From Nitrospinota bacterium (GTDB taxonomy: Bacteria; Nitrospinota_A; UBA7883; JACRLM01), in the NCBI GenBank assembly GCA_015231995.1, contig JADGAO010000008.1:1-28695 (forward strand): a stretch of DNA of 28,695 bases. The letters are read 5' to 3'. Position 1 is the first letter of the stretch. Every line of letters begins with the position of its first letter. The position numbers were made by a program, and so were the translations under genes. Shown here in pieces: positions 3,446 through 28,695 of this stretch. The notes under the pieces are model-generated. The model ran no database searches and had not been told where the DNA came from. It was given only the letters and a program-made list of their open reading frames with translations.

Positions 3446-3448
3446 CTT

Positions 3449-3990: not shown

Positions 3991-3994
3991 GTCG

Positions 3995-4792: not shown

Positions 4793-4901
4793 ATGGTTGA
4801 CAAAGCCTCGAATTGCCTATAAGATATATTCAGATTTGAAGGGATGAATGTCGGCCTCAGCGCCGTGTGAATTCCGGGTTTCCCGGAGGTTCCTAGTCCC
4901 T

Positions 4902-9003: not shown

Positions 9004-9018
9004 GAATCAAGCCTCCGG

Positions 9019-9333: not shown

Positions 9334-9337
9334 GGCT

Positions 9338-9631
9338 TCACTCCGCCGCGATGGCTTTTCTGCCCAGCGGAAGCGCAAGGTCGATGTTGCTGTGCGGCCT
9401 GGGGATGACATGGACGGAGACAAGCTCGCCCACTTTCTCCGCCGCGCGCGAACCGGCCTCGGTTGCCGCCTTCACAGCCGCAACGTCGCCGCGCACGATG
9501 GCGGTGACATACCCTCCGCCGATTTTCTCGTATCCCACCAGCTCGACCTTCGCCGCTTTCAGCATGGCGTCGGAGGCTTCGACCATGCCGACAAAACCCT
9601 TGGTCTCGATCATTCCCAATGCGTCTGACAT
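9338..9631 (-). CDS. BMC-H hexameric shell protein (PduA/EutM/CcmK family)
   Basis: ATG at 9629-9631 gives '[63 protein letters not shown]', a near-consensus BMC domain. The upstream TTG in the ORF track is unlikely to be the start. Confidence 0.9.
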
Positions 9632-9655
9632 CTTTGACAATCTCCAAAAAAGACG

Positions 9656-10291
9656 TTATTCAGCTTTTCCCTTTTTCGCTGCTTTTCCCGTGACGCTCTC
9701 CAGAGCTTTCACGGCGGCGTCTGCGGCGGAGTCGATCTCCGCTTCAGAGCCTGACATGTAAAGCCGTCCGAACGCGCCGAACGGCCGCACTTCCACTAGT
9801 TTTACGTTGGCCGCTTTCTCCGCCTCGTTCGCGGCGAAAATGGCGTAACCGGCAGGCTCTGTCTCCAGTATGAAAAGCGACTCGCCCGGCAAAATCATGG
9901 AGCCGCTTTTGTTCCTGTTGATGAGCTGGCACTGGTAAGCCTCCATGCTCCGTATGATCTGGTTGGCGACGATGGTGGGCTTTATCCTGTCGGCCTCTGT
10001 GACGCCCAGATGGTCGAGTATCGCCCTCCCGGCGCTTATAACCTCGCCTTTGTCCATGTCGTGCACTTCAAGAAGGCCGTAAGCGCGTTCGACAATCTGC
10101 ACGGCTGGCTGGACTTTCGTGGCTTTCAGAGCCACGTCGGTCACGCGGTTGATGGCCAACCCCGGAGCAATCTCCACAAACAGGGACGCAACCCCCGGCA
10201 CGGGCAGGAAACCTTTGGCGGTGGAGCCTATGTAGGAGGCCAGCTGATCCTGGAGGCTGTCGAGGAATATGAAAGTCCTAAGTGTGATCAT
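9656..10291 (-). CDS. BMC-T shell protein with tandem BMC domains, CcmP/CsoS1D-like (resembles Haliangium BMC-T2)
   Basis: Start '[71 protein letters not shown]' and second domain '[47 protein letters not shown]' closely parallel, from memory, the Haliangium ochraceum BMC-T2 sequence ('[62 protein letters not shown]'). ATG at 10289-10291. Confidence 0.75.
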
Positions 10292-10337
10292 TTTTTCAAA
10301 TACCCCTGTCAATTCCCGTTGTATGTTTCTTGCGCGA

Positions 10338-14993: not shown

Positions 14994-17500
14994 GCCGGCT
15001 CGCCCTCCACGCCCGGCTCGTCCCCGGTTTCGTCAGGGGAACCCTCGTTGTCCTGTTCGCTTTCCTGCGCGTCCATCACGCCCACGGACACTACCCTGTC
15101 TCCCTCGCCGAGGTTTATCACCCGGACGCCTTTGGTGTTCCTGCCGACGACGGAAACGTCGCTTGCGTTCATGCGTATGGCCACGCCGTCTTTGCTCATG
15201 ACAAGCAGGTCGTGCGTGTCTTTCACCAGCTTTATGCCGACAACGCCTCCCGACTGTTCGTCGCATTTGATGTCTATGACCCCTTTGCCGGCCCTCGCCT
15301 GGACGGGGTATCTGCTGGTCTCCGACCTTTTGCCGTATCCATCTTCCTTTAGGGTGAACACAGTTTCGTCGGCGTCGCCTTCGGACGGAAGCGCGACCAT
15401 TCCCACCACCAGGTCGCCCTCGTCGAGCCTGACGGCGCGCACGCCCCTGGTGTCTCTGCCGATGGGCCTAAGGTCGCTTTCAGGGAAGGTGATGGACATA
15501 CCTTGCTGTGTGGCCACAAGTATGTTTTTGCTTCCGTCGGTCACGGTGACGGCTATCACGTCGTCGCCTTCTTCAAGGTCTATGGCTATGATGCCGCCTG
15601 CGTGGATGCGGGCGAACGCTTCCATGTCGGTCTTCTTGATGAAACCTTTCCTTGTGGCGGTGACAAGGAACGTTCCCGGATCGAAACCGGAAACCGGGAA
15701 AACCGTCTGCACCTTTTCATCCGGCTGTAGCTGGATAAGGTTGACCACGGCCTTGCCCTTGCCTGCGCGGGAGGATTCCGGCGCTTCGTAAACCTTCGTC
15801 CGAAACACCCTGCCGGTGTTTGTGAAGAATAGGAGGTTGTCGTGGGTAGAGGCCACGAACAGCTCTTTAAGATCGTCCTCTTCTTTCATGCTTATGCCGC
15901 GAACGCCTTTGCCGCCCCGTTTTTGCGCCTTGTACAGGTCGAGCGGCGTGCGTTTGATATAACCCTGGCTGGAGATCGCCACGACCATGTCCTCTTTGGC
16001 TATGAGGTCTTCGATGTCAACCTCGTTCTCCAGCGGAACCAGCCTCGTGCGCCTCTCGTTGCCGTATTTGGCCTTTATCTCCGCCAGTTCTTCCTTGATC
16101 ACGCGGAGCTTTTCCTCTTCGTGGTCGCGGATGTAAACAAGCCGCTCGATGATCCTGTTCGTCTCGGCCAGGTCGTCGGCTATTTTCTGGCGTTCAAGCC
16201 CGGTCAAGCGCTGGAGCCTTAACTCCAGTATCGCCTTGGCCTGAGCTTCGGAGAACGACCAGTTTTCAATAAGCCCTCTCCTGGCCTCATCTGGGGAGGC
16301 GGATTTGCGTATGAGGGCGATGACCTGATCCAGATGGTCGAGCGCCTTGGCGTAACCTTCCAGTATGTGCGCCCGCTCCGAAGCCTTGCGAAGCTCGAAA
16401 AGCGTCCGGCGGGTGACTATCTCCACCCGGTGGCTTACGAAATGACGCAGAATGTCTTTTAAAGTCAACTGCTTGGGTTGGCCGTCCACAAGGGCGAGCA
16501 GGATTACGCCGAAAGTCTCCTGCATCTGCGTATGTTTGAAAAGCTGGTTCAACACGATTTGCGCCATCGCGTCGCGTTTAAGCTCCACAACCACCCGCAT
16601 TCCTTGCCGGTCGGATTCGTCCCGCAGGTCGGATATGCCCAGAATCTTCTTGTCGCGCACGAGGTAGGCTATCTTCTCGACGAGCCTGGCCTTGTTGACC
16701 TGATACGGTATCTCGCTGATTACGATCCGTTCCCGGTCGCCTTTTTCCATAGGCTCGATGTGCGCCTTGGCCCGCATGATGATAAGCCCCCTGCCGGTGT
16801 GGTAGGCGGAGCGTATCCCTGCGGTTCCGTGTATCTCGCCAAAGGTCGGGAAATCCGGCCCGGGGATTACCTTCATCAGTTCGTCTATCGTGATATGCGG
16901 GTTGTCTATAAGGAGCATTAACCCGTCTATCACTTCGCTGAGGTTATGCGGGGGTATGTTGGTAGTCATGCCGACGGCTATGCCGCCAGACCCGTTTATA
17001 AGCAGGTTAGGGGCGCGAGCCGGAAGAACCGTCGGCTCGGACTCCGCCTCGTCGTAGTTGGGGATGAAATTTACGGTGTCCTTATCGAGGTCGGAGAGCA
17101 TCTCGTCGGAGATGCGGGCCAGCCGCGCCTCGGTGTACCTCATTGCGGCGGGCGAGTCACCGTCCACCGAGCCGAAGTTGCCCTGTCCGTCCACCAGCGG
17201 ATACCGCATGGAGAAGGGCTGGGCCATACGCACCAGAGCCTCGTAAACAGGCTGGTCGCCGTGTGGGTGGTACTTTGCTATCACGTCACCGACCGTTCTG
17301 GCCGATTTCTTGTAGGCTTTGTTGTGATGGTTTCCTATGGAGTGCATCGCGAACAAAATCCTGCGGTGCACAGGTTTGAGACCGTCACGGACATCCGGCA
17401 GGGCGCGGGAAACTATGACGCTCATTGAGTATTCGAGGAAGGAGGAACGCATCTCGTCCTCGATGGCTATCGGGATTATGCTAAGGCCGCTTTCGTTCAT
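14990..17500 (-). CDS. gyrA: DNA gyrase subunit A
   Basis: From ATG at 17498-17500 ('[56 protein letters not shown]'). GyrA C-terminal beta-pinwheel repeats and acidic tail follow. RBS 'AAGAG' at -9. Confidence 0.95.
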
Positions 17501-17724
17501 CTTAACTCTTTGAAGTTTCGAATGTTGTCGTGTGAATATAAAAGAGCTATTGTAGCGCTTTCGCTCTTCTTTTGGAACCACTATTTTGATTTATGGCGGG
17601 AAACGTTCCGGCAGGCCTCTAATCGGGTTTTGTGGGATAATTTGGATAATCCTCTCTTGCCGCTGTTAGAGGCGCTCTTCGGGCGGTCACCCAGAACATT
17701 GCGCAGAAGCGAACCTGAAAGAGT

Positions 17725-17935
17725 TTGTCATTCTTGTGCGCCCCTTGTCATTCTGAACGAGCGCAGTGAAGTGAAGAATCCATCGAAGGAACATTTTGTT
17801 CTACTTTGATCCTTCGGTTGCCGGAGGCTCCCTCAGGATGACAAAAACATTGTCATTCTGAGCCCTTCGCTTTGCTCAGGGTAAACTCCGCGAAGAATCC
17901 ATCAAAAAATTTTTACTCTACTTCGATCTTTAACC
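17725..17935. repeat. Dispersed repeat family A (about two units plus the 'gtaaactccgcgaagaatccatc' module)
   Basis: 'gtcattctgaacgagcgcagtgaagtgaagaatccatc..gttctactttgatccttcgg..ggctccctcaggatgacaa..gtcattctgagcccttcgctttgctcagggtaaactccgcgaagaatccatc' matches units at 1650-1780, 21108-21275 and 22866-23115. Confidence 0.6.
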
Positions 17936-17996
17936 CGCCCTCTTGTCGAACAAGGGGCCGGGGTGAAGAACACCCCGGCATCCCACGATAGCCTCT

Positions 17997-19445
17997 TCAA
18001 TCGGCGTTCGGATTGTCGCTTACAACGGGTTTTGGGGCGCCTGAAACATCGGCGGACGCGATTTCCCTGCCCATATCCGGTTTTATGAAAACTGGCTTTA
18101 TATGTTTGTCCACATCCGGCTTGTTGTTGACGCAACGCAGTTTTTTGAACAGGAAGTCGAACTTGGCCTCCAGCTCCCCCCGCAGTTTGACCTTCGTCTC
18201 TTCGGGCATCGTCCACAGCTCTTCTTTGACCAGGCCAAAGCCTTTTTTGCGGGTCTTGTAGATGAACTGCTCCTCGGTCTGTCCTGATTTCCACTCGTCC
18301 TTGAAATTTTCCTTCAACAACGAATACATCTTCTCCCTCATAGCCTTTGGCAGATTGGGCGAATCGTAAATCATGTTCTGGAACCCCGTGGCCAGATGAA
18401 CCTCAGATGTCGTGGCTTCCGGGAACCTGTGGAACGCTTCGTCGGGCAGGGTGGAGGCGCCATGCTGAACCGCGCCTGAAAGACCATACTTCTCCCTGGC
18501 CGTTTTGCTCATTTTCTCCAGCGTATCGAAATCCAGTTTCACCTGGGCCACAGTGCCGTCCGGCAGTGGGATACCGCCGTGCGACGTGCCTGTCTGCACC
18601 GACACTTTGCTGATGCCCTTGAGATTGGCGCCATGTTTCTTGAGGCTGGCGTTATACCCGTCCATATAAGCGACCAGTTCCTCGACGGTGGAGTTTTTCT
18701 CCCCGACTTCGCCGATTTCACCGCCGACAGATACGGTCAATCCGGCAGGCTCCTGACTGCGGACATGGGCGGTAAGCTCCGCGCCGACTTCAAAATTAGC
18801 CCTCTGTTGCTCGTAAATTGTAGGCTTGGAGAGGTCAACGAGCGTGGAAGTGTCTATGTCTATGTTATAGAACCCGGCGGCAAGGGCCTCAGTGATGAGT
18901 TTTTTAAGGCCCTCTATCTCCTTGGCGGGATCGGCCTTGAATTTCTTGACGTTCACCTGGAAATGGTCGCCCTGCACAAACACTGGGCCACTCCAGCCTT
19001 CCTTGATTCCGGCGGCGAGCATGACGACGGCGTATTCGGCGGGACGCTGGAAAGTGTAATCAATCTCCGACTTTGCGATTTCGAATATGAACGGGCCGGA
19101 GCCGTTTTTGATTGCGGCGTGGAAAAGGGCGCGGGCCACGTCGTATGTCATTCCGCGGATGTTGACGGCGGGAACGGTGTAACCTTTCACCTCGCCTCTG
19201 CCCATCGCCTCGTACAACCCCTCTATGGAGGCGCAGTAAACTCCCAAATCCAGCCCGGCGGACTTTATCGCCCAACGCGCCGTTCCCCGTATTGCGGGCG
19301 TCTGTCCGAAAACGGCGTTATAAATGAGCAGGTCAATGGCCTTCTCGCGGAACGCCGCGCGATCGGACACTTTCACGGCGCCGTTGTCAACCTTGGCGCA
19401 GTTGGATATAGCGGCCAGAAGCTCTTTTTCGGTTTGAACTTTCAT
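17997..19445 (-). CDS. Class II fructose/tagatose-bisphosphate aldolase-family protein (long form, ~480 aa)
   Basis: Family motifs 'VQGDHF' (DH), 'VGGEIGEVGEK' (ELGxxGG-like), 'VQTGTSHGG' and 'VQHGASTLP' (HGgSG). The ~100-aa C-terminal extension is unusual for the family. Confidence 0.65.
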   Translation of the reverse strand: MKVQTEKELLAAISNCAKVDNGAVKVSDRAAFREKAIDLLIYNAVFGQTPAIRGTARWAIKSAGLDLGVYCASIEGLYEAMGRGEVKGYTVPAVNIRGMTYDVARALFHAAIKNGSGPFIFEIAKSEIDYTFQRPAEYAVVMLAAGIKEGWSGPVFVQGDHFQVNVKKFKADPAKEIEGLKKLITEALAAGFYNIDIDTSTLVDLSKPTIYEQQRANFEVGAELTAHVRSQEPAGLTVSVGGEIGEVGEKNSTVEELVAYMDGYNASLKKHGANLKGISKVSVQTGTSHGGIPLPDGTVAQVKLDFDTLEKMSKTAREKYGLSGAVQHGASTLPDEAFHRFPEATTSEVHLATGFQNMIYDSPNLPKAMREKMYSLLKENFKDEWKSGQTEEQFIYKTRKKGFGLVKEELWTMPEETKVKLRGELEAKFDFLFKKLRCVNNKPDVDKHIKPVFIKPDMGREIASADVSGAPKPVVSDNPNAD

Positions 19446-19617
19446 TGTCGCTCCCTCACCATTTTTGAAATGGGTTCACATGCAAGATCGCCCGTTCCCC
19501 CCTTTGGGAGAGGGCCGCCGCGATTACAACAAGACACACCAGCCATGTATTGCGCCAATACGATATCACAAGAGGGCGCCCCACGCCAGCCTGTCGATAA
19601 CCAAACGATTTCCATAT

Positions 19618-19675
19618 TTTGTCATCCTGAGGGAGCTCTAGCGACCGATCAAAGTATAATTGAACATTCTATCGT
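19618..19675. repeat. Half-unit of repeat family A followed by GC hairpin 'gcgggcg ggac gcccgc'
   Basis: 'ttgtcatcctgagggagctctagcgaccgatcaaagta' is the left arm of the family A unit. Confidence 0.5.
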
Positions 19676-19739
19676 TGCGGGCGGGACGCCCGCACTCCCA
19701 GGGAAAAAGCGCATGATTGGACTCCCTCGACCTGTTACA

Positions 19740-19762
19740 GGACATTCTTTAGACAAATGTCC
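19740..19762. promoter_or_regulatory. Perfect 7-bp inverted repeat GGACATT-N9-AATGTCC (candidate operator) upstream of the lipoprotein gene pair
   Basis: 'ggacattctttagacaaatgtcc', flanked by the further half-sites 'tgttacagg' / 'aacaggaca'. About 240 bp upstream of the 20001 start. Confidence 0.3.
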
Positions 19763-19944
19763 AAAAACAGGACAACATTAAGCGGCCTATCCTTCCAAAA
19801 CATTTCCAACGCCAAAACACGATGCTGGCCACCCATTTACAATCAATCAGTTATGCGTTGCCTTGTTTTTATGGAAATGGCATTGGTCGTGGCACATAAT
19901 GTGCTTTTTAAATTGAATCTTATCTGCATTTTGGCGGATCCGTA

Positions 19945-19975
19945 TTGGCGTTGAAAAACGTCATTTGGTTATAAT
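19945..19975 (+). promoter_or_regulatory. Candidate sigma70 promoter for lipoprotein gene 20001-20516
   Basis: Consensus -10 'tataat' at 19970-19975. Possible -35 'ttggcg' (19 nt spacer) or 'ttgaaa' (13 nt spacer). RBS 'GGGAGG' at 19985-19990. Confidence 0.35.
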
Positions 19976-20000
19976 GTTAATTTTGGGAGGATGTTTCGTA

Positions 20001-20516
20001 ATGAACAAGGTTTTTCTAAGGTACGCGTTGGCCGTCATGTTGGTGGTGACGCCTGCGATGATAGCCGCATGTGGTTCTTCATCTTCGTCTACGCCTAGTA
20101 GCTCCAGCACTAGCGGCGACTCTTCCACTAGCGGTGGCACGACCACGAGCGGCGGAACGACAACGAGCGGCGGCACCAGCGGTGACACTTCCACGAGCGG
20201 TGGAACGACCACCAGCGGCGGAACATCCACCAGCGGTGGCACGACCGGCACACCGGCCCCCGCCACTTGCACAGAGGGCGCGGCTGACGCTTATTACGGA
20301 ACGACTGTTACTCCGAATACGGCGATCACCATCACTGAAACCAGCGGCACGGTCATCACCACAACCAGCGGCGCCGACGGCAAGTTCTGCGTGACGGGCA
20401 ACCCGGCTGGCGGTTATGGTTCATCCACCGCCGCCGGCGCGATGGTCACCAGGCCGACCAACGGCTCCTGCGCCACTGGCGGGGCGTTGTGTCACAGCCT
20501 TCTGCCCCTGCGGTAG
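20001..20516 (+). CDS. Lipoprotein with Ser/Thr/Gly-rich repeat linker and C-terminal beta-sandwich-like (CarboxypepD_reg-like) domain; haem-less paralogue of the downstream gene
   Basis: ATG at 20001 preceded by GGAGG. Signal peptide plus lipobox 'MIAAC'. Linker '(TSGGTTTSGG)n'. C-terminal domain 'CTEGAADAYYGTTV..ITETSGTVITTTSGADGKFCVTGNPAGGYG..GSCATGGALCH' aligns with the downstream paralogue, but CTGCH is replaced by CTEGA. Confidence 0.6.
   Translation: MNKVFLRYALAVMLVVTPAMIAACGSSSSSTPSSSSTSGDSSTSGGTTTSGGTTTSGGTSGDTSTSGGTTTSGGTSTSGGTTGTPAPATCTEGAADAYYGTTVTPNTAITITETSGTVITTTSGADGKFCVTGNPAGGYGSSTAAGAMVTRPTNGSCATGGALCHSLLPLR
20075..20250 (+). repeat. Imperfect tandem nucleotide repeats (about 24-30 bp) encoding the (TSGGTTTSGG)n linker
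   Basis: Reiterated 'acgagcggcggaacgacaacgagcggcggcaccagcggtgac..acgagcggtggaacgaccaccagcggcgga'. Could undergo slippage or length variation. Confidence 0.5.
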
Positions 20517-20560
20517 ATTGCGGCCAACGCTTTCGCAAGACTGCGTGAGATAGTATAATT

Positions 20561-20596
20561 CGGCTCCCGGCGCTCATGCCGGGAGCCGTTTTTTTT
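20561..20596 (+). terminator. Rho-independent terminator (10-bp perfect stem, 8-nt loop, T8 tail)
   Basis: 'cggctcccgg cgctcatg ccgggagccg tttttttt', 45 bp after the stop of the 20001-20516 gene. Confidence 0.7.
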
Positions 20597-20615
20597 AGGG
20601 GGTTCGATACAGACA

Positions 20616-21038
20616 ATGAAAAGTTCGTTTCTAAGGTTGCTTGCCACTGGGTTTATAGCCTTGTCTCCCGTGATTATTTCCGCGTGTGGAGAGCATCAAA
20701 AACTTGGCGAAAGCGGAGCTGGCGGCTCATCTCATAACGAGGGACGCGACTGCACCGGGTGCCATACCGCCAATTACGCAGGCACTGTTTATAAGAGCGC
20801 GACTGGCGGCGTGGCGCCTAACGCCGTTGTCGTTATCACGGAAAACAACGGGACGGTTCTTGAAGTGACTGCGGACAATAGCGGCAATTTCTACACGTCC
20901 AGAGGCAACCCTTCCGGCGGGTACTCGGTCACCATCAGGGGAAACACGTTCGGCATGGTCAGCAAACCTACCAGCGGGGCATGTTCATCTGGCGGCTGTC
21001 ACGACGGGATAACCACGCTGGTAGTTCATAAGAACTGA
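20616..21038 (+). CDS. Small lipoprotein with CxxCH haem-c binding motif and beta-sandwich-like (CarboxypepD_reg-like) domain; putative monohaem c-type cytochrome
   Basis: Signal peptide plus lipobox 'IISAC'. 'RDCTGCHTANYAG' (CxxCH). 'AVVVITENNGTVLEVTADNSGNFYT..GNPSGGYSVTIRG' fits the GxVxDxxG..F....G.Y pattern of the CarboxypepD_reg fold. C-terminal 'GACSSGGCHDG' is a second Cys pair plus His. Confidence 0.6.
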   Translation: MKSSFLRLLATGFIALSPVIISACGEHQKLGESGAGGSSHNEGRDCTGCHTANYAGTVYKSATGGVAPNAVVVITENNGTVLEVTADNSGNFYTSRGNPSGGYSVTIRGNTFGMVSKPTSGACSSGGCHDGITTLVVHKN

Positions 21039-21057
21039 ATTCCGCTTAACAGTGGTC

Positions 21058-21090
21058 GCCTCGGTTTTTTTGCAGGGGCGACCCACCGGG
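21058..21090. repeat. Degenerate copy of hairpin family C ('caggggcgaccc acc gggggcc')
   Basis: Resembles the perfect hairpin at 27211-27243 ('gtaggggcgaccc ggt gggtcgcccctac'). Nested IRs 'ggtcgcc..ggcgacc' and 'cagtgg..ccactg'. Confidence 0.3.
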
Positions 21091-21107
21091 GGCCACTGCA
21101 AAGGATC

Positions 21108-21275
21108 CAGGATGACAATGTTCTTGTCATCCTGAGGGAGGCTCTGCGACCGAAGGATCAAAGTAGAATAGAATATTCTTTTTGATAGATTCTTCGCGTT
21201 GCTCAGAATGACAAACTCTGATGGATTCTTCGCGGAGTTTACCCTGAGTCCTCGAAGGGCTCGCAATGACAATCG
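21108..21275. repeat. Dispersed repeat family A (one full palindromic unit plus the 'gatggattcttcgcggagtttaccctgag' module)
   Basis: 'ttgtcatcctgagggaggctctgcgaccgaaggatcaaagtagaatagaatattctttttgatagattcttcgcgttgctcagaatgacaa'. Confidence 0.6.
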
Positions 21276-21372
21276 CAGGCGTCTTTCGCTTCAATACGGT
21301 TTTTTCAATTCCCCCTCACACCCTCTCCCGGTTACAATTCACTCTGATTTCAAATACCAGCGGAGTTTTCGC

Positions 21373-22863
21373 ATGATCGCAGGTTCCCATATACGGCGTC
21401 TACTACTGCTGTTGGCGTTATTGATCGCCCCTGCGGGAGAGGCCGGGGCAGAGTCGAGGACGGAACGGATCAACAACGCCGTCGTCAAGATTTTTTCCGT
21501 CATAAGGGAATCGAGCTATTTCCAGCCGTGGCAGTACGAAAGCTCCGTCAACGTAAGCGGCTCCGGCGTGATAATCTCCGGCAACCGGATACTTACAAAC
21601 GCCCATGTAGTCGCCGATTCCGTCTTCATAGAGGTCAAAAAAGCGGGCGACCCGCGCAAGTACACCGCGTCCGTGGAGGCTGTCGGCCACCAGTGCGACC
21701 TTGCGACGCTGAAGGTCAATGACGAGAGATTCTTCGACGGGGTCGTCCCGATAAAGTTCGGGGAGCTTCCAAGCCCGATGGATAAAATAACCGCGCACGG
21801 CTACCCCGAAGGCGGCGACGACATATCCGTCACCCAGGGGGTCGTCTCCCGGATCGAACAGGTGCGGTACGCCCACAGCGGGTTGAACCTTCTCGGCGCG
21901 CAGGTGGACGCCGCCATAAACCCCGGCAACAGCGGCGGCCCCGCCGTCAAGGGCGACAGGCTTATAGGGATCGTCATGCAGACCCTCTCCACAGCCCAGA
22001 ACATAAGTTATGTGATCCCCACCCCGATAATTCAGCATTTTCTCGATGATGTGAAAGACGGCGTATTCGACGGATTCCCCGAAGATGGGGTAACCATACA
22101 GAGCATGGAAAACGAGTCCCTGCGCAAGTATTACGGACTCACGGCAAAACATAGCGGCGTCCTCGTGATTGAAGTGGCCTACGGCGGGTCGGCCTGGGGC
22201 CTCATTAAACCCGACGACGTGATAACCTCCATTGACGGCGTTTCCATCGGCAACGACGGGGCGGCGCCGTTAAACAAAAAACTCCGGGCGCAGTGCGACC
22301 ATCTTGTGCAAAGGCGGTTTCTGGGCGACACGATAAAGTACGAGATTATCCGCGACAAGAAACCGATGACGTTGAGCCTGCGCCTTAAAAAATCTGCGCA
22401 ACTCGTCCCATACGAGCAGAGCGGAAAACCGCCCGCCTATTATATTTACGGCGGCCTTGTGTTCATGCCGCTTACGCTCAACTACCTGATGACGTGGGGA
22501 GAAATGTGGTGGAAGGAGGCTCCGGTGGATCTGCTACATGCGGAACTTAAGGAGCAACCGTCCGAAAAGCGCGGCGAGCTGGTGATCTTGCGCAAAGTCC
22601 TGGCCCATGAGGTAAACGCGGGATACCACGAGAGCCAGGACCGCATCGTCAAGAAGGTCAACGGAGCCACAGTCTCCAGTATGGCCGATCTTGTGATCAA
22701 GCTCAGGTCGCACAACGGCGCGTTCACCACGGTGGAGTTGGAAGACGGCGGAAGAATAGCGCTTAACACGCTGGCTGTGGCGAAGTCGAAAAACGAACTG
22801 TTGAAGCTTTACGGCATACAGAACGAAGCGTCGCCGGACCTGGCGGGATTGAAGGGGAAGTAG
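21373..22863 (+). CDS. Trypsin-like serine protease (S1, HtrA/DegP-like) with signal peptide and C-terminal PDZ-like region
   Basis: ATG at 21373 (RBS GGAG at -9). Signal 'MIAGSHIRRLLLLLALLIAPAGEAGA'. Catalytic triad context 'TNAHVV', 'CDLATLKV', 'GNSGGPAV'. The upstream part of the ORF-track ORF (21199-21372) lies in repeat sequence. Confidence 0.8.
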   Translation: MIAGSHIRRLLLLLALLIAPAGEAGAESRTERINNAVVKIFSVIRESSYFQPWQYESSVNVSGSGVIISGNRILTNAHVVADSVFIEVKKAGDPRKYTASVEAVGHQCDLATLKVNDERFFDGVVPIKFGELPSPMDKITAHGYPEGGDDISVTQGVVSRIEQVRYAHSGLNLLGAQVDAAINPGNSGGPAVKGDRLIGIVMQTLSTAQNISYVIPTPIIQHFLDDVKDGVFDGFPEDGVTIQSMENESLRKYYGLTAKHSGVLVIEVAYGGSAWGLIKPDDVITSIDGVSIGNDGAAPLNKKLRAQCDHLVQRRFLGDTIKYEIIRDKKPMTLSLRLKKSAQLVPYEQSGKPPAYYIYGGLVFMPLTLNYLMTWGEMWWKEAPVDLLHAELKEQPSEKRGELVILRKVLAHEVNAGYHESQDRIVKKVNGATVSSMADLVIKLRSHNGAFTTVELEDGGRIALNTLAVAKSKNELLKLYGIQNEASPDLAGLKGK

Positions 22864-22865
22864 GA

Positions 22866-23115
22866 CGTCATCCTGAGGGGGCTTCTCTTTGTCATTATGA
22901 GGGAGCTTTTTTTGTCATCCTGAGGGAGCCTTAGCGACCGAAGGATCAAAGTAGAACAGGATATTCTATTTGATAGATTCTTCGGCTTCGCCTCAGAATG
23001 ACAATACCACCGCTCAGAATGACAATGTTTTTTGTCATCCTGAGGGAGCCTTAGCGACCGAAGGATCAAAGTAGAATAAAGCATTCTTTTGATGGATTCT
23101 TCACTTCGTTCAGAA
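22866..23115. repeat. Two tandem full units (plus a partial) of palindromic repeat family A; the 3' unit supplies the stop codon of the heptosyltransferase gene
   Basis: Units at ~22905-23010 and ~23025-23115: 'ttgtcatcctgagggagccttagcgaccgaaggatcaaagtagaa(N5)attct(n)tttgat(r)gattcttc(N3-4)tcg(NN)tcagaatgacaat'. Left and right arms are imperfect reverse complements, giving a ~90-nt hairpin potential. Confidence 0.65.
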
Positions 23116-24093
23116 TGACAATGATCGCGCCGTTTCCACAATCTCGTCAACCGATACCGCTGTCATGCAACGGTGGTCTGTTGGACATTCGCGTTTGAAA
23201 CAGGGCGCGCAATCGGCCTTGTGCCGGATGACCGTCACGTTGGCTCCCAGCGGCTTTGTCTCCTCTGGCGACGTGGGGCCGAAAATAGCGATAGTCGGCG
23301 CGCCAAGCCCCGCAGAGATGTGCATGGGGCCGGTGTCGTTTGTGACATAGAGGGATAGGCGCGACATCACCGCCGCAAGCGTCGCAAGATCGGTCTTACC
23401 CACCAGCGATATCGCCTTGCTGTCTGCAAGCGTCATTATCTCCCGCTCCATCTCCCTGTCGGACTCCGCTCCAAGCAAAACCACATCCGCTCTTTCCGCA
23501 AGCCTGCCGATCAACTCCGCGTAACGATCCTTCGCCCACATCTTGGCGTGTCCGTATGTCGCGCCAAACCCCAGCCCGACAAGCGGACGCGCCGTCTTCG
23601 GCAACAGCTCATACGACCTTTGCAAGGCCGACGATGGAATGGTTAGGCTGACCGGCCCGATAGTTATCTCCGGGAATACCGCCTGCGCCACGCGAAGGTA
23701 ATAGTCGCTCATGTGCATGGAGTGAGGCTCTGGGCGTTTGACCCGATGGGTAAGCAGAACAGACCGGAAGTCGCTGGCGTAACCTGCGCGGACTGGAACG
23801 CCCGCCCGCCACATCTCCCACGCCGAACGGAACGAGTTTGGCAATATCAGCGCTGTGTCGTAACGCGCCTGCCGCACGGCGTTGATGGCGGAAGCGGAGT
23901 CGCCCTCCAGCTTTATCACATCGTCCACGCCGGGGATTATCGCGCCAAGCCCAGCCATGCCGCTTTTAATCATGAGGCTCACGGAAACGTCAGGGCGGCT
24001 TTTTTTGATAGCGCAGATCATAGGCGCGGACATCACGCAATCGCCCAGCCAGTTGGGCATACGGATGATCAGGCGTGATGGTGAAGATGTCAT
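23110..24093 (-). CDS. ADP-heptose:LPS heptosyltransferase (glycosyltransferase family 9, WaaF/WaaC-like)
   Basis: 'LIIRMPNWLGDCVMSAPMI' and 'TNDTGPMHISAGLGAPTIAIFGPTSP' match GT9 heptosyltransferase motifs. ATG overlaps the upstream stop (ATGA at 24090-24093). Confidence 0.85.
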   Translation of the reverse strand: MTSSPSRLIIRMPNWLGDCVMSAPMICAIKKSRPDVSVSLMIKSGMAGLGAIIPGVDDVIKLEGDSASAINAVRQARYDTALILPNSFRSAWEMWRAGVPVRAGYASDFRSVLLTHRVKRPEPHSMHMSDYYLRVAQAVFPEITIGPVSLTIPSSALQRSYELLPKTARPLVGLGFGATYGHAKMWAKDRYAELIGRLAERADVVLLGAESDREMEREIMTLADSKAISLVGKTDLATLAAVMSRLSLYVTNDTGPMHISAGLGAPTIAIFGPTSPEETKPLGANVTVIRHKADCAPCFKRECPTDHRCMTAVSVDEIVETARSLSF

Positions 24094-25067
24094 CGAACTT
24101 GCGCGGTTTTTGACGAGGCGGAAATTATCTCCATGTCACGCCGGATAGCTGTTATATCTTTTTCGCCGGGCCGTGTTTTCCAGCGTTTGTGAAACCATAG
24201 CCATTGCTCCGGCGCGTGGCGGATCGCCTCTTCGAGCGCGTCATTTATCTTCATCGTGATAAGCCGTATGTCGGCGGAGCGGTCGCCAGTGGGCTGGATG
24301 ATTATCTCCGGCCAGAACTTCGCCGTATATACGCCGGTGGTCTGGTCGAGAAAAGAAAAGTAGGGTATCACCGCAGACCCTGTCCGCAGGCTCGCCACCG
24401 CCGGGGTTACGACCGTCGCGCAAAGCTTGCCGAAAAACGGGACGAAGATGTTGTTGAACCCGGCGTTCTGATCCACCGCCACGGTGACAACCCCGCCTTC
24501 ACGAACCCTTTTGATTATCTCCATCGCGGAATGTTCGCGTTTTATCACTTTAAGCCCGGTGGCCATCCGGCAATCGTCGGTTATCCGGTCTACCCCCTCG
24601 TTGTCCACCGTGCGTATCACCGACCATACCGGAAACCCAAGCAGGGCCAACGCGCCGTTTGCCATTTCGAAATGGCCGGAATGGGCCGTGGCCAGTATCA
24701 CACCCTTGCCTCTGGCGTGGGCCTCTTTCAAAATCTCCAGCCCCTCGATTGTGACGATCTGCTCGGCCGTCTCCCTGTCGAGCGTCTTGAGTCTTCCCGC
24801 CTCCACAATGAACCTGCCGAAATGCAGGCACATCTTGCGCGTGATGGTTTTAAGTTTTTCCTCATCTTCGTCCGGGTAGAGATTCCGCATGTTCTCGACA
24901 GCGACTTTGACGCGCCCGCTCAACAAAAGAAATATCCAGAGAAGGTATCCCAACGCAGACCCTATCATCAGAGCGGTATTGCGGGGAACGGACTGGACAA
25001 GCTTTGCCAGCCCCAACACGGCGGCGTATCCTGCCTTGTCCGCGATGGAGCTGTGTTTGCCGCCCAT
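24090..25067 (-). CDS. Lipid A biosynthesis (lauroyl/myristoyl) acyltransferase, LpxL/HtrB family
   Basis: From ATG at 25065-25067 ('MGGKHSSIADKAGYAAVLGLAKLVQ..AVENMRNLYPDED..ATAHSGHFEMAN'), the family N-terminal pattern and HX4E motif. The longer upstream extension in the ORF track is not family-like and overlaps hisH. Confidence 0.78.
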   Translation of the reverse strand: MGGKHSSIADKAGYAAVLGLAKLVQSVPRNTALMIGSALGYLLWIFLLLSGRVKVAVENMRNLYPDEDEEKLKTITRKMCLHFGRFIVEAGRLKTLDRETAEQIVTIEGLEILKEAHARGKGVILATAHSGHFEMANGALALLGFPVWSVIRTVDNEGVDRITDDCRMATGLKVIKREHSAMEIIKRVREGGVVTVAVDQNAGFNNIFVPFFGKLCATVVTPAVASLRTGSAVIPYFSFLDQTTGVYTAKFWPEIIIQPTGDRSADIRLITMKINDALEEAIRHAPEQWLWFHKRWKTRPGEKDITAIRRDMEIISASSKTAQVR

Positions 25068-25071
25068 GGCG

Positions 25072-25698
25072 TTAGGAAAGCCCGACGGCTCTGGCGGTGA
25101 AGTTGCGAAGGACGGCAAGGCCCGCCTGCTGGCTTTTTTCCGGGTGGAACTGGACGGCGAACACCGAGCCGCGTTCCACAGCCGAAGCGAAGGGCACGCC
25201 ATACTCCGTGGAGGCGACGGCGATATCCTCCTCCGGTTTGGGATAGTAGGAGTGGACGAAATAAAAATCCGACCCGTCGGCCACGCCGTCGAAGAGCTTT
25301 CCGCTTTTCGTGTAACGAACCTGGTTCCAGCCCATGTGCGGCACCTTAAGTCCGGCTTCTCGCGGTGGCGTAAACTTCAGGCATTGCCCTTTGAACACGC
25401 CAAGCCCCGTTACTCCCGGCGATTCCTCGCTACCCTCGAACAGTATCTGGTATCCGACACATATGCCGAGGAACGGCCTGCCGGAGGCGATGAAATCCTT
25501 CACCGCGCCCACAAGCCCGAATTTTTCCAGATGCGCCATACATTCGCCGAACGCGCCGACTCCGGGTAAAACCAGAGCCTCCGCGTTCACAACGTCTTCA
25601 GGACTGCGCGAAACGACGGCCTTCGCCCCGATTTTCTCGAACGCTTTCTGGACGGAGCGAAGATTGCCCGCGTCGTAATCAACGATGACTATCGGCAT
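25072..25698 (-). CDS. hisH: Imidazole glycerol phosphate synthase, glutamine amidotransferase subunit
   Basis: 208 aa; 'MPIVIVDYDAGNLRSVQKAFEKIG..LPGVGAFG..GICVGYQIL' (catalytic Cys in 'GICVG'); 'HSYY' and 'QFHPEKS'. Confidence 0.92.
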   Translation of the reverse strand: MPIVIVDYDAGNLRSVQKAFEKIGAKAVVSRSPEDVVNAEALVLPGVGAFGECMAHLEKFGLVGAVKDFIASGRPFLGICVGYQILFEGSEESPGVTGLGVFKGQCLKFTPPREAGLKVPHMGWNQVRYTKSGKLFDGVADGSDFYFVHSYYPKPEEDIAVASTEYGVPFASAVERGSVFAVQFHPEKSQQAGLAVLRNFTARAVGLS

Positions 25699-25710
25699 AC
25701 AGAAGCCCGA

Positions 25711-26301
25711 TTACAGAGCGCCTTTGGTGGACGGAACCGCCCCGGCGAGCCTTGGGTCGATCCTCACAGCGTCGCCAAGCGCTCGCGCAAGAGCCTTGAA
25801 GATCGCCTCTATCACATGATGCAGGTTCGTGCCTCTGCGGACGGTGATGTGGAGCGTAAGCCCTGCGGCGTTGACGAGGGCGCGGAGGAACTCCTCGGCA
25901 AGCTCCGAGTCGAACTCTCCAACCTTGCTCTTCGGCAAATCCGCATCGAACACCATGAACGGCCTGCCGGATATGTCCAGGCTCACGTCCACAAGGGCTT
26001 CGTTCATCGGGATGGAGGCGAAGCCGTAGCGTGTCATGCCGCTCTTGTCGCCGAAGGCTTTCGTAAGGGCCTGCCCAAGCGACAGCCCGACGTCCTCCAC
26101 TGTGTGATGGCCGTCTATCTCAAGATCGCCTTTGGCGTCCACCATCATGTCTATCAGAGAGTGGCGCGAGAGATGGTCGAGCATGTGGGCGAAAAATGGA
26201 ATCCCTGCGTTTATCCGGCTCTGCCCGGAGCCGTCGAGGTTTACTTCAACGGTTATGTCTGTCTCTTTTGTTTTGCGTGTTACGCTTGCGGTTCGTGGCA
26301 T
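25711..26301 (-). CDS. hisB: Imidazoleglycerol-phosphate dehydratase
   Basis: 196 aa; 'RKTKETDITVEVNLDGSG..GIPFFAHMLDHLSRHS..DGHHTVEDVGLSLGQAL' gives canonical IGPD motifs. Confidence 0.92.
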   Translation of the reverse strand: MPRTASVTRKTKETDITVEVNLDGSGQSRINAGIPFFAHMLDHLSRHSLIDMMVDAKGDLEIDGHHTVEDVGLSLGQALTKAFGDKSGMTRYGFASIPMNEALVDVSLDISGRPFMVFDADLPKSKVGEFDSELAEEFLRALVNAAGLTLHITVRRGTNLHHVIEAIFKALARALGDAVRIDPRLAGAVPSTKGAL

Positions 26302-26374
26302 CGCTTTTGGCCGTCTCAGGTTAAATTTCCCTTAATATATCATATGGAGGACTTTGCATAATCTATCGCATTCG

Positions 26375-26435
26375 CAATATTGTCATTCTGAGGCGAAGCC
26401 GAAGAATCCATCTAAAAAACAATTTGTTCTACCCG
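26375..26435. repeat. Half-unit of repeat family A
   Basis: 'cattctgaggcgaagccgaagaatccatctaaaaaacaatttgttctac' is near-identical to 1660-1710. Confidence 0.5.
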
Positions 26436-26443
26436 GTTCATCT

Positions 26444-27181
26444 TCACTCCCTCACCTTGACGACCCTGGCTGGCGACCCGACGGCCACAACCCTCTGCGG
26501 CAGGCTTGCGGTGACAATCGCCCCGGCCCCGATTACCGCGCTCTCGCCGATATTAACGCCGTCCAACACAGTGACCTTTGCGCCAAGCCAGCAGTCGTTG
26601 GCTATCTCTATCCCTTCGCTCGTCCATCCCTGGTCGAGGATCGCCTCGTCCACATCGTCGAAGTTGTGCCTCGTGGCGAACAGGGAGACGTAAGGGCCAA
26701 GTAAAGACTTCTCCCCTATCACTATCCTGGAGTTGGAGGAGATGTTGCAGTAGGTGGAGATGTTGGCGTAGTCCTTGAGGATGATGTCGCCTTCCTTGCA
26801 ACTGAAAATCGTGCCACGCCCCACATAGCAGTTTTCGCCGATTATTATCCCTGTGTTGTCGGAGCCTTTGGCGTCCAGCAAAACGCCGTCGTCAATGATG
26901 GAGCCGTTCCCGATTTCTATTTTCAGCGGGTGGCGAAGCGACACATCCATTCCGAAGACCACGCCGCGTCCAACCCTGCCGATGATCATGGGATAAAAAA
27001 TCTTCCGCAACACTATTCCCAACGCGCCGGGTATCCGGGAAAAAAGGAGGATGACAAGTTCGAACTTTATCAGAAACCAGATGGAGCGCGTTCCCAATAT
27101 GAGATCCTGATACTGCTCAAGCCTCGATTTGCCCTTCCCGCCGTACTCGTGCTGAATCTGGATGTTTATCTTATCGCTCAT
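26444..27181 (-). CDS. Hexapeptide-repeat (left-handed beta-helix) acetyl/acyltransferase, WcaF/NeuD-like
   Basis: 245 aa. Repeated [LIV]G-x4 hexapeptides ('IGNGSIIDDGVLLDAKG..IIIGENCYVGRGTIF..IGEKSLLGPYVSL..IANDCWLGAKVTVLDGVNIGESAVIGAGAIV'). N-terminal hydrophobic segment. Confidence 0.7.
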   Translation of the reverse strand: MSDKINIQIQHEYGGKGKSRLEQYQDLILGTRSIWFLIKFELVILLFSRIPGALGIVLRKIFYPMIIGRVGRGVVFGMDVSLRHPLKIEIGNGSIIDDGVLLDAKGSDNTGIIIGENCYVGRGTIFSCKEGDIILKDYANISTYCNISSNSRIVIGEKSLLGPYVSLFATRHNFDDVDEAILDQGWTSEGIEIANDCWLGAKVTVLDGVNIGESAVIGAGAIVTASLPQRVVAVGSPARVVKVRE

Positions 27182-27210
27182 GATACTCGCCTGTTCTGAA
27201 TAGCCGTATA

Positions 27211-27243
27211 AAATCTGTAGGGGCGACCCGGTGGGTCGCCCCT
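27211..27243. repeat. Perfect 13-bp-stem hairpin (family C) between divergent genes
   Basis: 'gtaggggcgaccc ggt gggtcgcccctac'. No T-tract on either side, so it is not a canonical terminator. A degenerate copy lies at 21058-21090. Confidence 0.4.
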
Positions 27244-27389
27244 ACAATATGCAAAACTCCATCATAAATCCCAATCAGCCGCGTCCCGTATTAAGTTAAA
27301 ATGTATAATACGTCAAAATGCGGTCTTGTTGAAAATCAGGATAGTTTAAGCTGGTTTTGTTTGTCCATACCGGCATTTGTGGAGCGATG

Positions 27390-28695
27390 ATGTCTAAGAC
27401 ATATCTTGACGCGGAAACCTTCCGCGATCTTTTCACCGCCGGCGCCAGACGGGTCAATGAATCCAGAGAGTACCTCAACAGCATAAACGTTTTCCCCGTT
27501 CCCGACGGCGACACAGGCTCCAACATGGCCGATACGCTCACCAACGCCGCCAACGCGCTGGCCTCATCCGATTGCGCTACCCTCGATGAGACCCTTGCGA
27601 CGTTATCGAAAAAACTGCGGATGGAGGCTAAGGGCAATTCCGGCATAATACTCTCCGAGTTCTTCCACGGCATGTTTCTCAAACTCAAGGAAGCACGCGC
27701 CATCCATCCCGAACGGTTCATAGACGCCGTCAACCACGGCAAGGAAGCCGCCTACGCCGCCCTTGCCGAACCGAGGGAAGGCACCATGCTCACCGCCATC
27801 CGCAAGTCCGCCGAAAAACTAAGGGACGTCCACCCGAAAATAGAAGACATGAAAATAGCCGTCGAAACGTTGGTGGACAGCGCCCGGACAGCCGTCAAAG
27901 AGACTACGGCCCAGTTGAGCGTGTTAAAAGAGAGCCATGTTGTTGATTCCGGCGCGCACGGGTTCCTGCTCTTCTGGGAGGGCGCCTTGGGATACCTCAA
28001 AGGCGAAATAAAAAGCGTCGTTATCGAGCCGGTCAAGCGTGTGTTCACAAGGGCCAAAGCGGAGAGTATATCCGTCCGTTATTGCGTCGAGGGCCTTGTC
28101 ACCGGCGAAGGTTTCGACCGCAAGGCAATCGGCGGGAAACTTTCGTCAATGGGCGAGTCCCTGATAGTCACAAGCGACGGGAACATGCTCAAAGTCCACA
28201 TCCACACGAACGACCCGAAGGCTGTCTTCGAATATCTCGGACAGTTCGGGACGTTGATAAAGACCAAAGTGGACGACATGATGGATCAGAGCATGACCAA
28301 AGCCGCTCTGGCCAGAAGGCCAGTGATGATCGTGACGGATTCCACGTGCGATCTGGAACTGGCGCTCATGGAGCGGAACGACATCGAGATGGCCCCGTTG
28401 CAGGTCATGTTCGGAGAGGAGACTTTCCGCGACCGAATAGACCTCACCGCCGACGAGTTCTACCACAGGCTCAAAACGTCGGAGACGATCCCGCACACAA
28501 GTCTTCCGCAGGGTTCAGCGTTTCTGGAGGCGTTCGAGCATCACGCCCCGCGTTGCGACAAGATTCTGGGAATCTACATTTCAAGCGCCCTTTCCGGCAC
28601 ATGGCAGGCGGGACGAAAATGGGGAGAGGAGTTTGAAAGCGGCAAGACCATCGCGTACGACTCCAGACAGGCGTCGCTCGGAATGGGGTTGATGA
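27390..28695 (+). CDS. DAK2-domain / DegV-domain fusion protein (YloV-like), 3'-truncated by window end
   Basis: Absent from the ORF track because it runs off the window. Translating from ATG 27390 (RBS GGAG at 27381-27384) gives an open frame to 28695. 'VFPVPDGDTGSNMADTL' is the DhaL/DAK2 motif; 'MIVTDSTCDL' is the DegV motif. Confidence 0.8.
   Translation, partial: MSKTYLDAETFRDLFTAGARRVNESREYLNSINVFPVPDGDTGSNMADTLTNAANALASSDCATLDETLATLSKKLRMEAKGNSGIILSEFFHGMFLKLKEARAIHPERFIDAVNHGKEAAYAALAEPREGTMLTAIRKSAEKLRDVHPKIEDMKIAVETLVDSARTAVKETTAQLSVLKESHVVDSGAHGFLLFWEGALGYLKGEIKSVVIEPVKRVFTRAKAESISVRYCVEGLVTGEGFDRKAIGGKLSSMGESLIVTSDGNMLKVHIHTNDPKAVFEYLGQFGTLIKTKVDDMMDQSMTKAALARRPVMIVTDSTCDLELALMERNDIEMAPLQVMFGEETFRDRIDLTADEFYHRLKTSETIPHTSLPQGSAFLEAFEHHAPRCDKILGIYISSALSGTWQAGRKWGEEFESGKTIAYDSRQASLGMGLM

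Follow-up and report, generated by a model that had tools for sequence, protein, structure and literature searches.

The window analysed here is the whole 28,695-nucleotide stretch (G+C content 55.7%) forming positions 1 to 28,695 of contig JADGAO010000008.1 of a Nitrospinota bacterium. Its genes are ordinary chromosomal ones and encode an ABC ATPase, a MIP channel, a bacterial-microcompartment locus, SerRS, GyrA, a class-II aldolase-like protein, a DegP-like protease, a GT9 heptosyltransferase, a lipid A acyltransferase, HisH, HisB and a hexapeptide transferase. Dispersed among these genes is a family of palindromic repeats with a unit of ~95 nt. In our preferred interpretation, to which we would assign a probability of about 0.55, the unit is a head-to-head (HH) heterodimer of two hairpin modules of the repetitive extragenic palindrome (REP) type, belongs to the CGTC/TGTC-tagged REP superfamily, and is a non-autonomous element copied in trans.

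Five complete units, four half or single modules and at least six short terminal fragments are distributed over seven loci. The copies were called by repeat detection, BLAST of the unit and direct reading, and their coordinates were checked base by base. An nhmmer profile built from the five full units and run on the window returned full copies at 1660-1752(-), 17744-17847(-), 21122-21214(+), 22910-23005(+) and 23030-23122(+), with E values of 1e-27 to 1e-30, and three partial copies (26379-26437, 19617-19674 and 17849-17931), together with several short fragments. The tag motif TGTCATYCTGA occurs 18 times with at most one mismatch, compared with 0.66 +/- 0.79 times in dinucleotide shuffles, and CGAAGRATC occurs 12 times compared with 0.94 expected from shuffles. 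The tag reads TGTC in 17 of the 18 motifs and CGTC in the one at 22866. The individual copies are listed below, with E values from nhmmer and D1 to D5 denoting the complete units.

1-31, forward strand: long-loop module (GTAAACTCCGCGTAGCGAAGTGAAGAATCTC) truncated by the window edge to its 3' part; its GGGTAAACTCCGCGAAGAATC block recurs at 17881-17901 and 21219-21245.
1661-1751, reverse strand: HH heterodimer D1, with arm2 at 1661-1691, spacer at 1692-1716 and arm1 (reverse complement) at 1717-1751; E 3.6e-27.
1752-1780, reverse strand: truncated extra arm1 (tag and first 29 nt) abutting D1, from repeat detection and nhmmer.
17725-17744, forward strand: terminal 'stutter' fragment (TTGTCATTCTTGTGCGCCCC).
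17745-17844, reverse strand: HH heterodimer D2, with an extended-loop arm2 at 17745-17782, a spacer and arm1 (reverse complement) at 17807-17844; E 3.3e-27.
17850-17935, reverse strand: long-loop module (17850-17901) followed by a spacer and a decayed partner arm; E 4e-08.
19619-19677, forward strand: half unit consisting of arm1 (with a small deletion) and spacer, without arm2; E 2.1e-10.
21107-21118, reverse strand: terminal tag fragment (TTGTCATCCTGG), from the motif scan.
21124-21214, forward strand: HH heterodimer D3, with arm1 at 21124-21158, spacer at 21159-21187 and arm2 (reverse complement) at 21188-21214; E 1.6e-28.
21219-21272, reverse strand: single long-loop module (TTGTCATTGCGAGCCCTTCGAGGACTCAGGGTAAACTCCGCGAAGAATCCA), the outer end of which is common to the relative L256.
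22866-22909, forward strand: pair of terminal 'stutter' fragments (CGTCATCCTGAGGGGGC..., TTGTCATTATGAGGGAGC...), both with T/C-rich filler behind them; not in the relative L257.
22912-23004, forward strand: HH heterodimer D4, with arm1 at 22912-22946, spacer at 22947-22975 and arm2 (reverse complement) at 22976-23004; E 5.2e-30.
23011-23025, reverse strand: terminal tag fragment (TTGTCATTCTGAGCG), from the motif scan.
23032-23121, forward strand: HH heterodimer D5, with arm1 at 23032-23066, a spacer and arm2 (reverse complement) at 23095-23121; E 3.4e-29.
26380-26432, reverse strand: half unit consisting of arm2 (26380-26410) and half a spacer, with 12 nt between its end and the hexapeptide-transferase stop codon; E 4.1e-13.

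An earlier note on this DNA had described the family as a dispersed, non-coding, non-autonomous and modular set of palindromes in both orientations, and that description is largely accurate. All seven loci that it named carry copies, copies lie on both strands, and the mosaic make-up is evident in the full, half, single-module and fragment copies. The tandem cluster placed at 22866-23115 is real, with a true extent of 22866-23121, whereas only the long-loop remnant at 1-31 could be recovered from the copy placed at 1-45. The spurious open reading frames (ORFs) encoding peptides of the type HCHSE...STLILRSLRLPQDDK are indeed generated by the repeats. At the end of the GT9 gene the overlap holds for the stop codon (23110-23112), which lies within D5 together with the last three codons of the gene rather than the last four. 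The two arms had been taken as plain mutual reverse complements; they are instead two variants of one hairpin module (arm1 ATCCT/AGGAT, arm2 ATTCT/AGAAT). In our view the elements are better described as HH dimers of TGTC-tagged REP hairpins than as 'MITE-like', that is, as resembling miniature inverted-repeat transposable elements.

The order arm1, spacer and arm2 in reverse complement, with the tags facing outward, is constant in all five complete units. Arm1 is TTGTCATCCTGAGGGAGCCTTAGCGACCGAAGGATC and arm2, read from its own tag, is TTGTCATTCTGAGGCGAAGCCGAAGAATCCA. Both follow a single plan, in which an unpaired tag (C/T)GTC precedes a stem that opens with A-T and T-A and runs through three further Watson-Crick pairs (ATyCT/AGrAT) to a tandem G.A/A.G mismatch; one or two G-C pairs and a short loop come next, and a 3-nt tail ends the module. 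The apex is often GCGNAGC and the tail often CCA, with CTA also occurring. Arm2 represents the compact form, TGTC-ATTCTGAGG-CGAAG-CCGAAGAAT-CCA; its stem (ATTCTGAGG/CCGAAGAAT) has nine positions, tandem G.A included, and its loop can be drawn either as the 5-nt CGAAG or as a GAA triloop closed by C-G. The extended form, arm1, contains two tandem G.A steps (ATCCT-GA-GG-GA-GC-CTTA-GC-GA-CC-GA-AGGAT) in a stem of 13 positions and has the loop CTTA. The tails of the five compact modules in the window are CCA (three) and CTA (two), and CCA is also found in two long-loop modules and in arm2 of D2. The spacer (CAAAGTAGAA...TTCT.TTTGAT) is 24-29 nt long and has complementary ends, so that a whole unit can also fold as one long hairpin. 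Whole units are predicted to fold strongly on both strands (z = -2.9 to -6.9), and the ViennaRNA folds of the isolated arms are the same as our hand model. For single arms, the tag strand is predicted to be more stable as RNA than its complement (-12.8 vs -9.6 and -7.9 vs -6.4 kcal/mol).

In a consensus scan, arm2 also reads as TTGTCA-16 nt-AAGAAT, a sigma-70-like -35/-10 pair directed into the unit. Such sites lie at 26380-26407, 23004-22977 (-), 21182-21209 and 22970-22999. The region 16500-27500 contains 17 promoter-like matches compared with 5.9 +/- 2.1, an excess that is largely due to the repeats.

The ends of the units often carry what we term 'stutters', extra copies of 12-29 nt comprising the tag and the first half-stem and mostly followed by T/C-rich filler. 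In the window these are found at 17725-17744, 22866-22909, 23011-23025, 1752-1780 and 21107-21118. The arrays are tandem duplications that cross the junction between flank and element. Each unit, of 20-26 nt, joins the tag and the module's first 11-17 nt to a homopolymer-rich filler (T/C, C or G runs). In other phyla they reach seven or eight copies in a row. A Dehalococcoidia genome (L092, 1-1700) has units of 25-26 nt and a Nitrospirales genome (L014, 4100-4250) has at least seven units of 20-21 nt; in a Pedobacter (L099, 3500-4130) tandem units of 135 nt are present. The arrays may be the footprint of a copying reaction.

The module extends far beyond the window. The search pattern TTGTCATYCTGAG-N4-32-CGAAGRATC, for which we estimate ~8 chance matches in 596 Gb, matched at least 120 stretches, each from another GTDB species genome. 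As judged from the record titles, the matches listed include Chloroflexota, Acidobacteriota, Cloacimonadota, Nitrospirales, Bacteroidota, many Bacillota, Actinomycetota, alpha-, beta- and gamma-Proteobacteria, Helicobacter, Desulfovibrio, Bdellovibrionaceae, Verrucomicrobiota, Planctomycetota, Patescibacteria, Gemmatimonadota, Abditibacteriales, Armatimonadota, Omnitrophota, Aminivibrio and Calditrichota; no archaea appear among the at least 120 genome matches listed. The same 28-nt hairpin module is found almost unchanged in about 18-20 bacterial phyla among the matches listed, and in phages. Isolates among these matches include Mucilaginibacter, Pedobacter, Acidicapsa dinghuensis and Bifidobacterium pluvialisilvae. 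In IMG/VR at least 120 viral stretches match the same pattern, and the loci belong to genuine tailed phages, which carry genes for capsid, terminase and portal proteins. At least 120 stretches of JGI metagenomes match a long-loop arm pattern and one PLSDB plasmid (Calothrix) was matched, while GenBank phages gave no match to the module pattern. A unit-specific 23-mer found no match in JGI metagenome contigs, and a unit-specific 17-mer gave only chance matches in coding sequence in a viral scan. The repeat-encoded peptide had no match in the protein database, full-text literature searched with the repeat as a DNA or peptide string returned only irrelevant matches, and we found no description of the module consensus in the searched literature later than Di Nocera et al. 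(2013). In the IMG/VR phage contigs L230 (11524-12912, -), L195 and L211 modules lie in frame inside genes. The L230 copy forms a duplicated in-frame insert (..AVSPRHACGMTPPFRQGG..LAMLGRNDNG..) in a large terminase, within the linker that joins its ATPase domain to its nuclease domain.

Comparison of the modules across phyla indicates that the stem covaries. In 146 cross-phylum modules, most commonly with a 5-nt spacer (65 of 146), the sole stem pair left free by the pattern (Y/R) is C/G in 73, T/A in 71 and mismatched in two. A search by layout alone, in which the first two pairs were fixed, gave 134 distinct 28-mers with G.A steps. In this set, the copies of which are related by descent, 96.9% of the cells are paired, compared with 19-52% in slid controls, and none of 500 shuffles reached the observed values. 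Compensatory changes occur at five of the seven Watson-Crick pairs (for example ATGCT/AGCAT, ATTCC/GGAAT and GAAC/GTGA), and partner arms, which lie outside the selection imposed by the search pattern, show the same compensations. This strong covariation in the sequences indicates that the pairing is constrained. Of the 134 28-mers, 97 have a GNA triloop at the apex, giving GCGNAGC, a 'mini-hairpin DNA' described as extraordinarily stable (Tm about 76 C) and nuclease resistant, which occurs in single-stranded DNA (ssDNA) priming (primase) and N4 RNA-polymerase promoter sites (PMC13037366). The first base of the tag across phyla is T in 123 and C in 11 of the 28-mers, position -1 of 86 dimers is T in 78 and C in eight, and the tails conform to CTN/CCN. 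Identical arms were found in only 14 of 203 dimers, and T/C heterodimers showed no excess over random pairing (94 seen, ~100 expected).

Evidence for recent turnover comes from the junction between the DegP-like and GT9 genes. The DegP-like protein has relatives at 80-91% identity on metagenome contigs, with the next matches (59-62%) in Nitrospinae metagenome-assembled genomes; the exact GT9 protein of the window had no entry in the protein collection. The contigs L131, L132 and L135 (DegP 81-84% identity) keep the gene order DegP, GT9, acyltransferase, HisH, HisB. The gap between DegP and GT9 comprises 246 bp of repeats in the window, compared with 20 bp in L131, and the two genes overlap in L135. 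The GT9 C-terminus reads ...ETARSLSF* in the window, where the end is supplied by the repeat, and ...ETARRVAI* in L131. In L132 the gap (4745-6550) holds a different insertion, with a 243-aa ORF and a ParD/ParE toxin-antitoxin pair, which marks this site as a hotspot for differing insertions. GTCATYCTGA is absent from 36 kb of L131-L135, compared with 16 occurrences in the 28.7-kb window. In L257 (DegP 87%) an identical arm1 lies one base beyond the DegP stop codon, and the window's two 'stutter' fragments are missing. L256, the closest relative (DegP 91%), has no copy after DegP, but the upstream long-loop module has an outer end common to L256 and the window. The pattern of presence and absence thus fails to track relatedness, which requires at least two gain or loss events at one site, and differences at the same sites among relatives with 81-91% DegP identity indicate that the turnover is recent. 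The earlier suggestion of recent activity holds in this sense, the orthologous sites of L131, L135 and L256 being empty and that of L257 filled. Copies are thus gained or lost between close relatives without change in the flanking genes. The L256 and L257 contigs, of ~1.7 kb, stop inside repeats on one or both sides, which indicates that the family breaks short-read assemblies.

The closest known systems are the REPs that Di Nocera et al. (2013; BMC Genomics 14:522; PMC3733652) sorted into GTAG- and CGTC-tagged superfamilies. According to that paper, CGTC REPs have a terminal tag CGTC, often TGTC (CCTC is allowed), stems of 8-9 bp that nearly always open with complementary AT, loops of 4-5 nt and 3-nt tails that fit CCA. 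They form mainly HH dimers with the tags outside, often heterodimers, with 20-100-bp spacers that have complementary ends; they lie between unidirectional or convergent ORFs, with some intragenic copies, and have no associated transposase. We tested tag, stem start and length, loop, tail, HH dimers, location and lack of an adjacent transposase, and in each of these the present family agrees with that description. It differs from what the paper describes in its invariant tandem G.A and usual GCGNAGC apex, in the 13-nt arm1 stem with two G.A steps, and in range, since the superfamily is there reported from five phyla and the module studied here occurs in about 18-20 among the matches listed, and in phages. 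Intragenic CGTC-1, -3 and -4 peptides quoted there (VIPAKAGI, VIAGLDPAI and VIPWLDHGI) imply perfect stems, and none fits the VILSEAKNL type seen here; CGTC-2, compared by its text description, has a stated 8-bp stem and 5-nt loop that match the present layout, and the present family could be identical with it. The same study places Neisseria dRS3 and the Rickettsia palindromic elements RPE-4 and RPE-6 in the CGTC superfamily. RPE-4 and RPE-6, classed there as CGTC-4 and CGTC-1, share the tagged hairpin design and in-frame copies inside genes, here represented by the phage terminase linker (L230) and the GT9 C-terminus, but have other stems and are Rickettsia-specific. In Neisseria the 20-nt hairpin repeat dRS3 (ATTCCC-N8-GGGAAT; CGTC-1) flanks 50-150-bp filler units of the intergenic mosaic elements (NIMEs), which are likewise mosaic, dynamic and without their own transposase (PMC1797815). 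The dRS3 stem differs in sequence and is perfectly paired, and Neisseria has long arrays and dRS3 is a proven phage attachment site (PMC1797815), neither of which is seen here.

The REPIN-RAYT system (Bertels & Rainey, 2011; PMC3116915) is similar in having two inverted REP hairpins and a spacer in a non-autonomous unit of ~100 nt that can form one long hairpin, in its high copy number and intergenic position, and in making no target-site duplication (TSD). REPINs differ in their GTAG tag, compared with TGTC here, and no RAYT was found in the window or beside copies elsewhere; they are described as lineage-specific and vertically inherited (PMC3116915), whereas the present module is nearly identical across phyla. 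The REPs and bacterial interspersed mosaic elements (BIMEs) of Escherichia coli also combine inverted REP hairpins with short linker motifs in mosaics at gene 3' ends, but have a GTAG tag and other sequences, are RAYT-associated and are confined to enterobacteria. They stabilise mRNA and bind gyrase and IHF. The stabilising role of E. coli REPs is discussed by Di Nocera et al. (PMC3733652).

Our preferred interpretation, that of non-autonomous CGTC/TGTC-tagged REP heterodimers copied in trans, draws on the anatomy, pairing, dispersal, recent gain and loss, lack of TSDs and of a linked transposase, and preference for gene 3' ends observed here. The enzyme acting in trans would recognise the tag and the folded hairpin on single-stranded DNA. 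By analogy with RAYTs and the GTAG REPs it could be an HUH/Y1 nuclease or, by analogy with Neisseria dRS3 and the Nf phage recombinase (PMC1797815), a site-specific recombinase. Insertion would occur near gene 3' ends without duplication, the 'stutter' copies at the unit ends would be by-products of copying or of slippage, and a transcribed element would, as a side effect at the RNA level, give the upstream mRNA a stable 3' hairpin.

Several points weigh against this interpretation. Mobility rests on presence/absence polymorphism, and recombination or deletion could produce the same pattern; the source genome is known here from 28.7 kb. The retrieval pattern fixes most stem positions, so that part of the apparent conservation is ascertainment, and the two stem variants could be two copy lineages instead of compensations that arose independently. 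Nearest-neighbour models give single arms only weak stability (z ~0 to -2). The 134 28-mers have no wobble asymmetry (G.T 11 vs A.C 7, both rare) and single modules have no orientation bias relative to the flanking genes or transcription (22 vs 17); the data are therefore silent on the strand involved and on folding as DNA or RNA.

A wider reading, which we put forward tentatively and consider rather unlikely, is that the 28-nt tandem-G.A hairpin (YTGTC-ATYCUGAGC-GNA-GCGAAGRAU-CYN) is one element, conserved in sequence, whose horizontal spread has taken it into most bacterial phyla and into tailed phages without a transposase of its own. Its copying would fall to a conserved host function or to an unrecognised enzyme reading the tag and DNA mini-hairpin on ssDNA, and the 'stutter' arrays of 20-26 nt would be its footprint.

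The gene context bears on a different explanation, namely that the units are mainly selected cis-acting RNAs, hairpins in 3' untranslated regions that shield mRNA from 3' exonucleases or set processing sites and that would owe their spread and retention to this function, through recombination and not transposition. Of 122 cross-phylum element clusters, 69 lie between unidirectional, 39 between convergent and 14 between divergent genes, compared with a background of 309/85/108 (chi-square about 22 by our calculation). This enrichment in unidirectional and convergent gaps and depletion in divergent ones, the strong whole-unit folds on both strands and the known action of E. coli REPs as mRNA stabilisers all favour such a function, as does the fact that the window copies between same-direction genes, four of four, read from arm1 to arm2 in the sense of transcription. 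Against it, the seven window loci, a small sample, include two between divergent genes, where promoters lie (three are unidirectional, one is convergent and one is at the window edge), copies come and go among close relatives with the flanking genes unchanged, and single modules lack an orientation bias (22 vs 17). The invariant unpaired tag, tandem G.A and mini-hairpin apex would moreover be superfluous in a mere protective hairpin. Rfam gave no match in the window at the gathering score, and for 22840-23140 only chance matches (E > 3, searched to E <= 10). We consider this explanation unlikely as the main account of the units, and regard a role as mRNA 3' stability determinants as possible. 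The earlier note had also raised a terminator role, which is not supported: no U-tract follows the hairpins, and among 16 terminator-like sites none is a folded repeat hairpin followed by a T-run, the consensus scan placing no terminator in the repeats. A weak terminator-like site at 23143-23123 (-) merely abuts the outer end of D5, and the hairpins precede A-runs or mixed sequence. Hammerhead, k-turn, attC, CRISPR and IS200/IS605-end readings were dropped on inspection because their defining sequence features are absent.

Ranking after the RNA explanation, and improbable in our estimation, is the proposal that the modules are DNA-level sites for proteins or enzymes (targets or attachment sites of an IS110/Piv-type site-specific recombinase, ssDNA initiation or priming signals, or weak promoters) at which recombination enlarges the mosaic. 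Precedent comes from dRS3 (CGTC-1), the integration site of filamentous prophages by way of a phage-encoded recombinase, and from the dynamic NIME arrays (PMC1797815; PMC3733652), as well as from the GCGNAGC mini-hairpins found in ssDNA sites that primase and the N4 RNA polymerase recognise (PMC13037366). The TTGTCA-16 nt-AAGAAT fit of arm2, the enrichment of promoter-like matches (17 vs 5.9 +/- 2.1) and the insertion hotspot between DegP and GT9, with its ParDE cassette in L132, are consistent with it. However, no recombinase or prophage adjoins any window copy, the promoter match comes from a consensus scan alone, and there are no large arrays here (two units at most).

Less favoured still, and in our opinion very unlikely, is the classical MITE, an internally deleted insertion sequence (IS) of the DDE-transposase type whose terminal inverted repeats would allow a full-length IS at another place in the genome to move it. 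The units resemble bacterial MITEs such as Correia and Nezha in their size (60-140 nt between outer tags at most retrieved loci), 27-38-nt inverted termini, intergenic position, insertion (presence/absence) polymorphism and capacity to provide stop codons or promoters. MITEs make TSDs and derive from an IS with the same ends, and we looked for both without success. In 86 isolated dimers from other genomes, examined at 16 offset combinations, no direct repeat of 2-8 nt exceeded shuffled pairs, and conservation ends at Y-T before GTCAT and A-R after ATGAC; the window junctions have no TSD either. The few inverted modules separated by 1.4-3.5 kb have ordinary genes between them (PIN, S13 peptidase, ABC permeases and RNR, from Pfam searches of the ORFs) and not transposases. 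Clustering of 4,939 ORFs from 240 loci revealed no recurrent neighbour family in the 120 genome loci; the families that did recur came from the viral loci and were capsid, terminase and portal proteins of phages. The window ORFs include no transposase and no Y1_Tnp match. In addition, both ends of a unit consist of a covarying hairpin that carries an unpaired tag, the signature of a REP.

Local duplication or chance similarity, for which one could cite that the source genome is seen over 28.7 kb and that the unit-specific 23-mer is unmatched in JGI metagenome contigs, is refuted by the copies at seven loci across 26 kb in unrelated contexts and both orientations, the identical arm in another organism's contig (L257), the module in at least 120 species genomes and the 18 tag motifs observed against 0.66 in shuffles.

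The family matters for the annotation and assembly of these genomes, in that it creates spurious ORFs, rewrites the GT9 C-terminus and stop codon, breaks short-read assemblies and marks strain-level variation. How CGTC/TGTC-tagged REPs move has been a standing question since 2013, and recent gain or loss at defined sites means that this lineage offers filled and empty alleles for working out the mechanism. The occurrence of a nearly identical, transposase-less module in about 18-20 phyla among the matches listed, and in phages, calls for explanation. If the pan-bacterial reading were true, the module would stand as a class of mobile DNA in its own right, and not as a further REP family specific to one lineage.

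Some other features of the window were noted. An 18-nt periodic repeat (20091-20258) encodes a Ser/Thr/Gly-rich stretch in an ORF at 19965-20516 (+) that has no Pfam match. The microcompartment locus (2633-10312, -) comprises a class II aldolase gene, three EutN/CcmL genes, two genes with bacterial-microcompartment (BMC) domains, an aldehyde dehydrogenase gene and a gene for an RnfC-like flavoprotein, with a DUF3800 gene inserted; a 774-aa ORF at 2498-4822 (+), without a Pfam match, is a shadow of these genes. A second palindromic repeat (CCCCTTATCAGGGGGGCTACCCCTCCGG...), unrelated to the first, forms an inverted pair of ~50 nt at 4141-4190 and 7385-7440, 3.2 kb apart. Between the two members of the pair lie a BMC shell gene of this locus, the DUF3800 gene and the gene for the RnfC-like protein, and the CCCCTGATAAGGGG core of the repeat is also found downstream of DegP in L256. 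A third palindromic family (CCGGGGTGAAGAACACCCCGG) is present at 4025-4051 and 17952-17978 of the window, at L135:~3195-3260 and L132:~3130 and at the 3' end of L256, and is common to relatives without the TGTC family. The same genomes contain other tagged hairpin families, for example GTCATGCTGAGCTTGTCGAAGCATGAC, a CTCAGGGTAAACTCCG long-loop block and a Neisseria-like TGTCATTCCCGCGAAGGCGGGAATCC, with sites at L132:9870-9950, at 21236-21272 and 17862-17890 of the window and at L014:4010-4035. Their coexistence suggests a larger superfamily with interchangeable stems.

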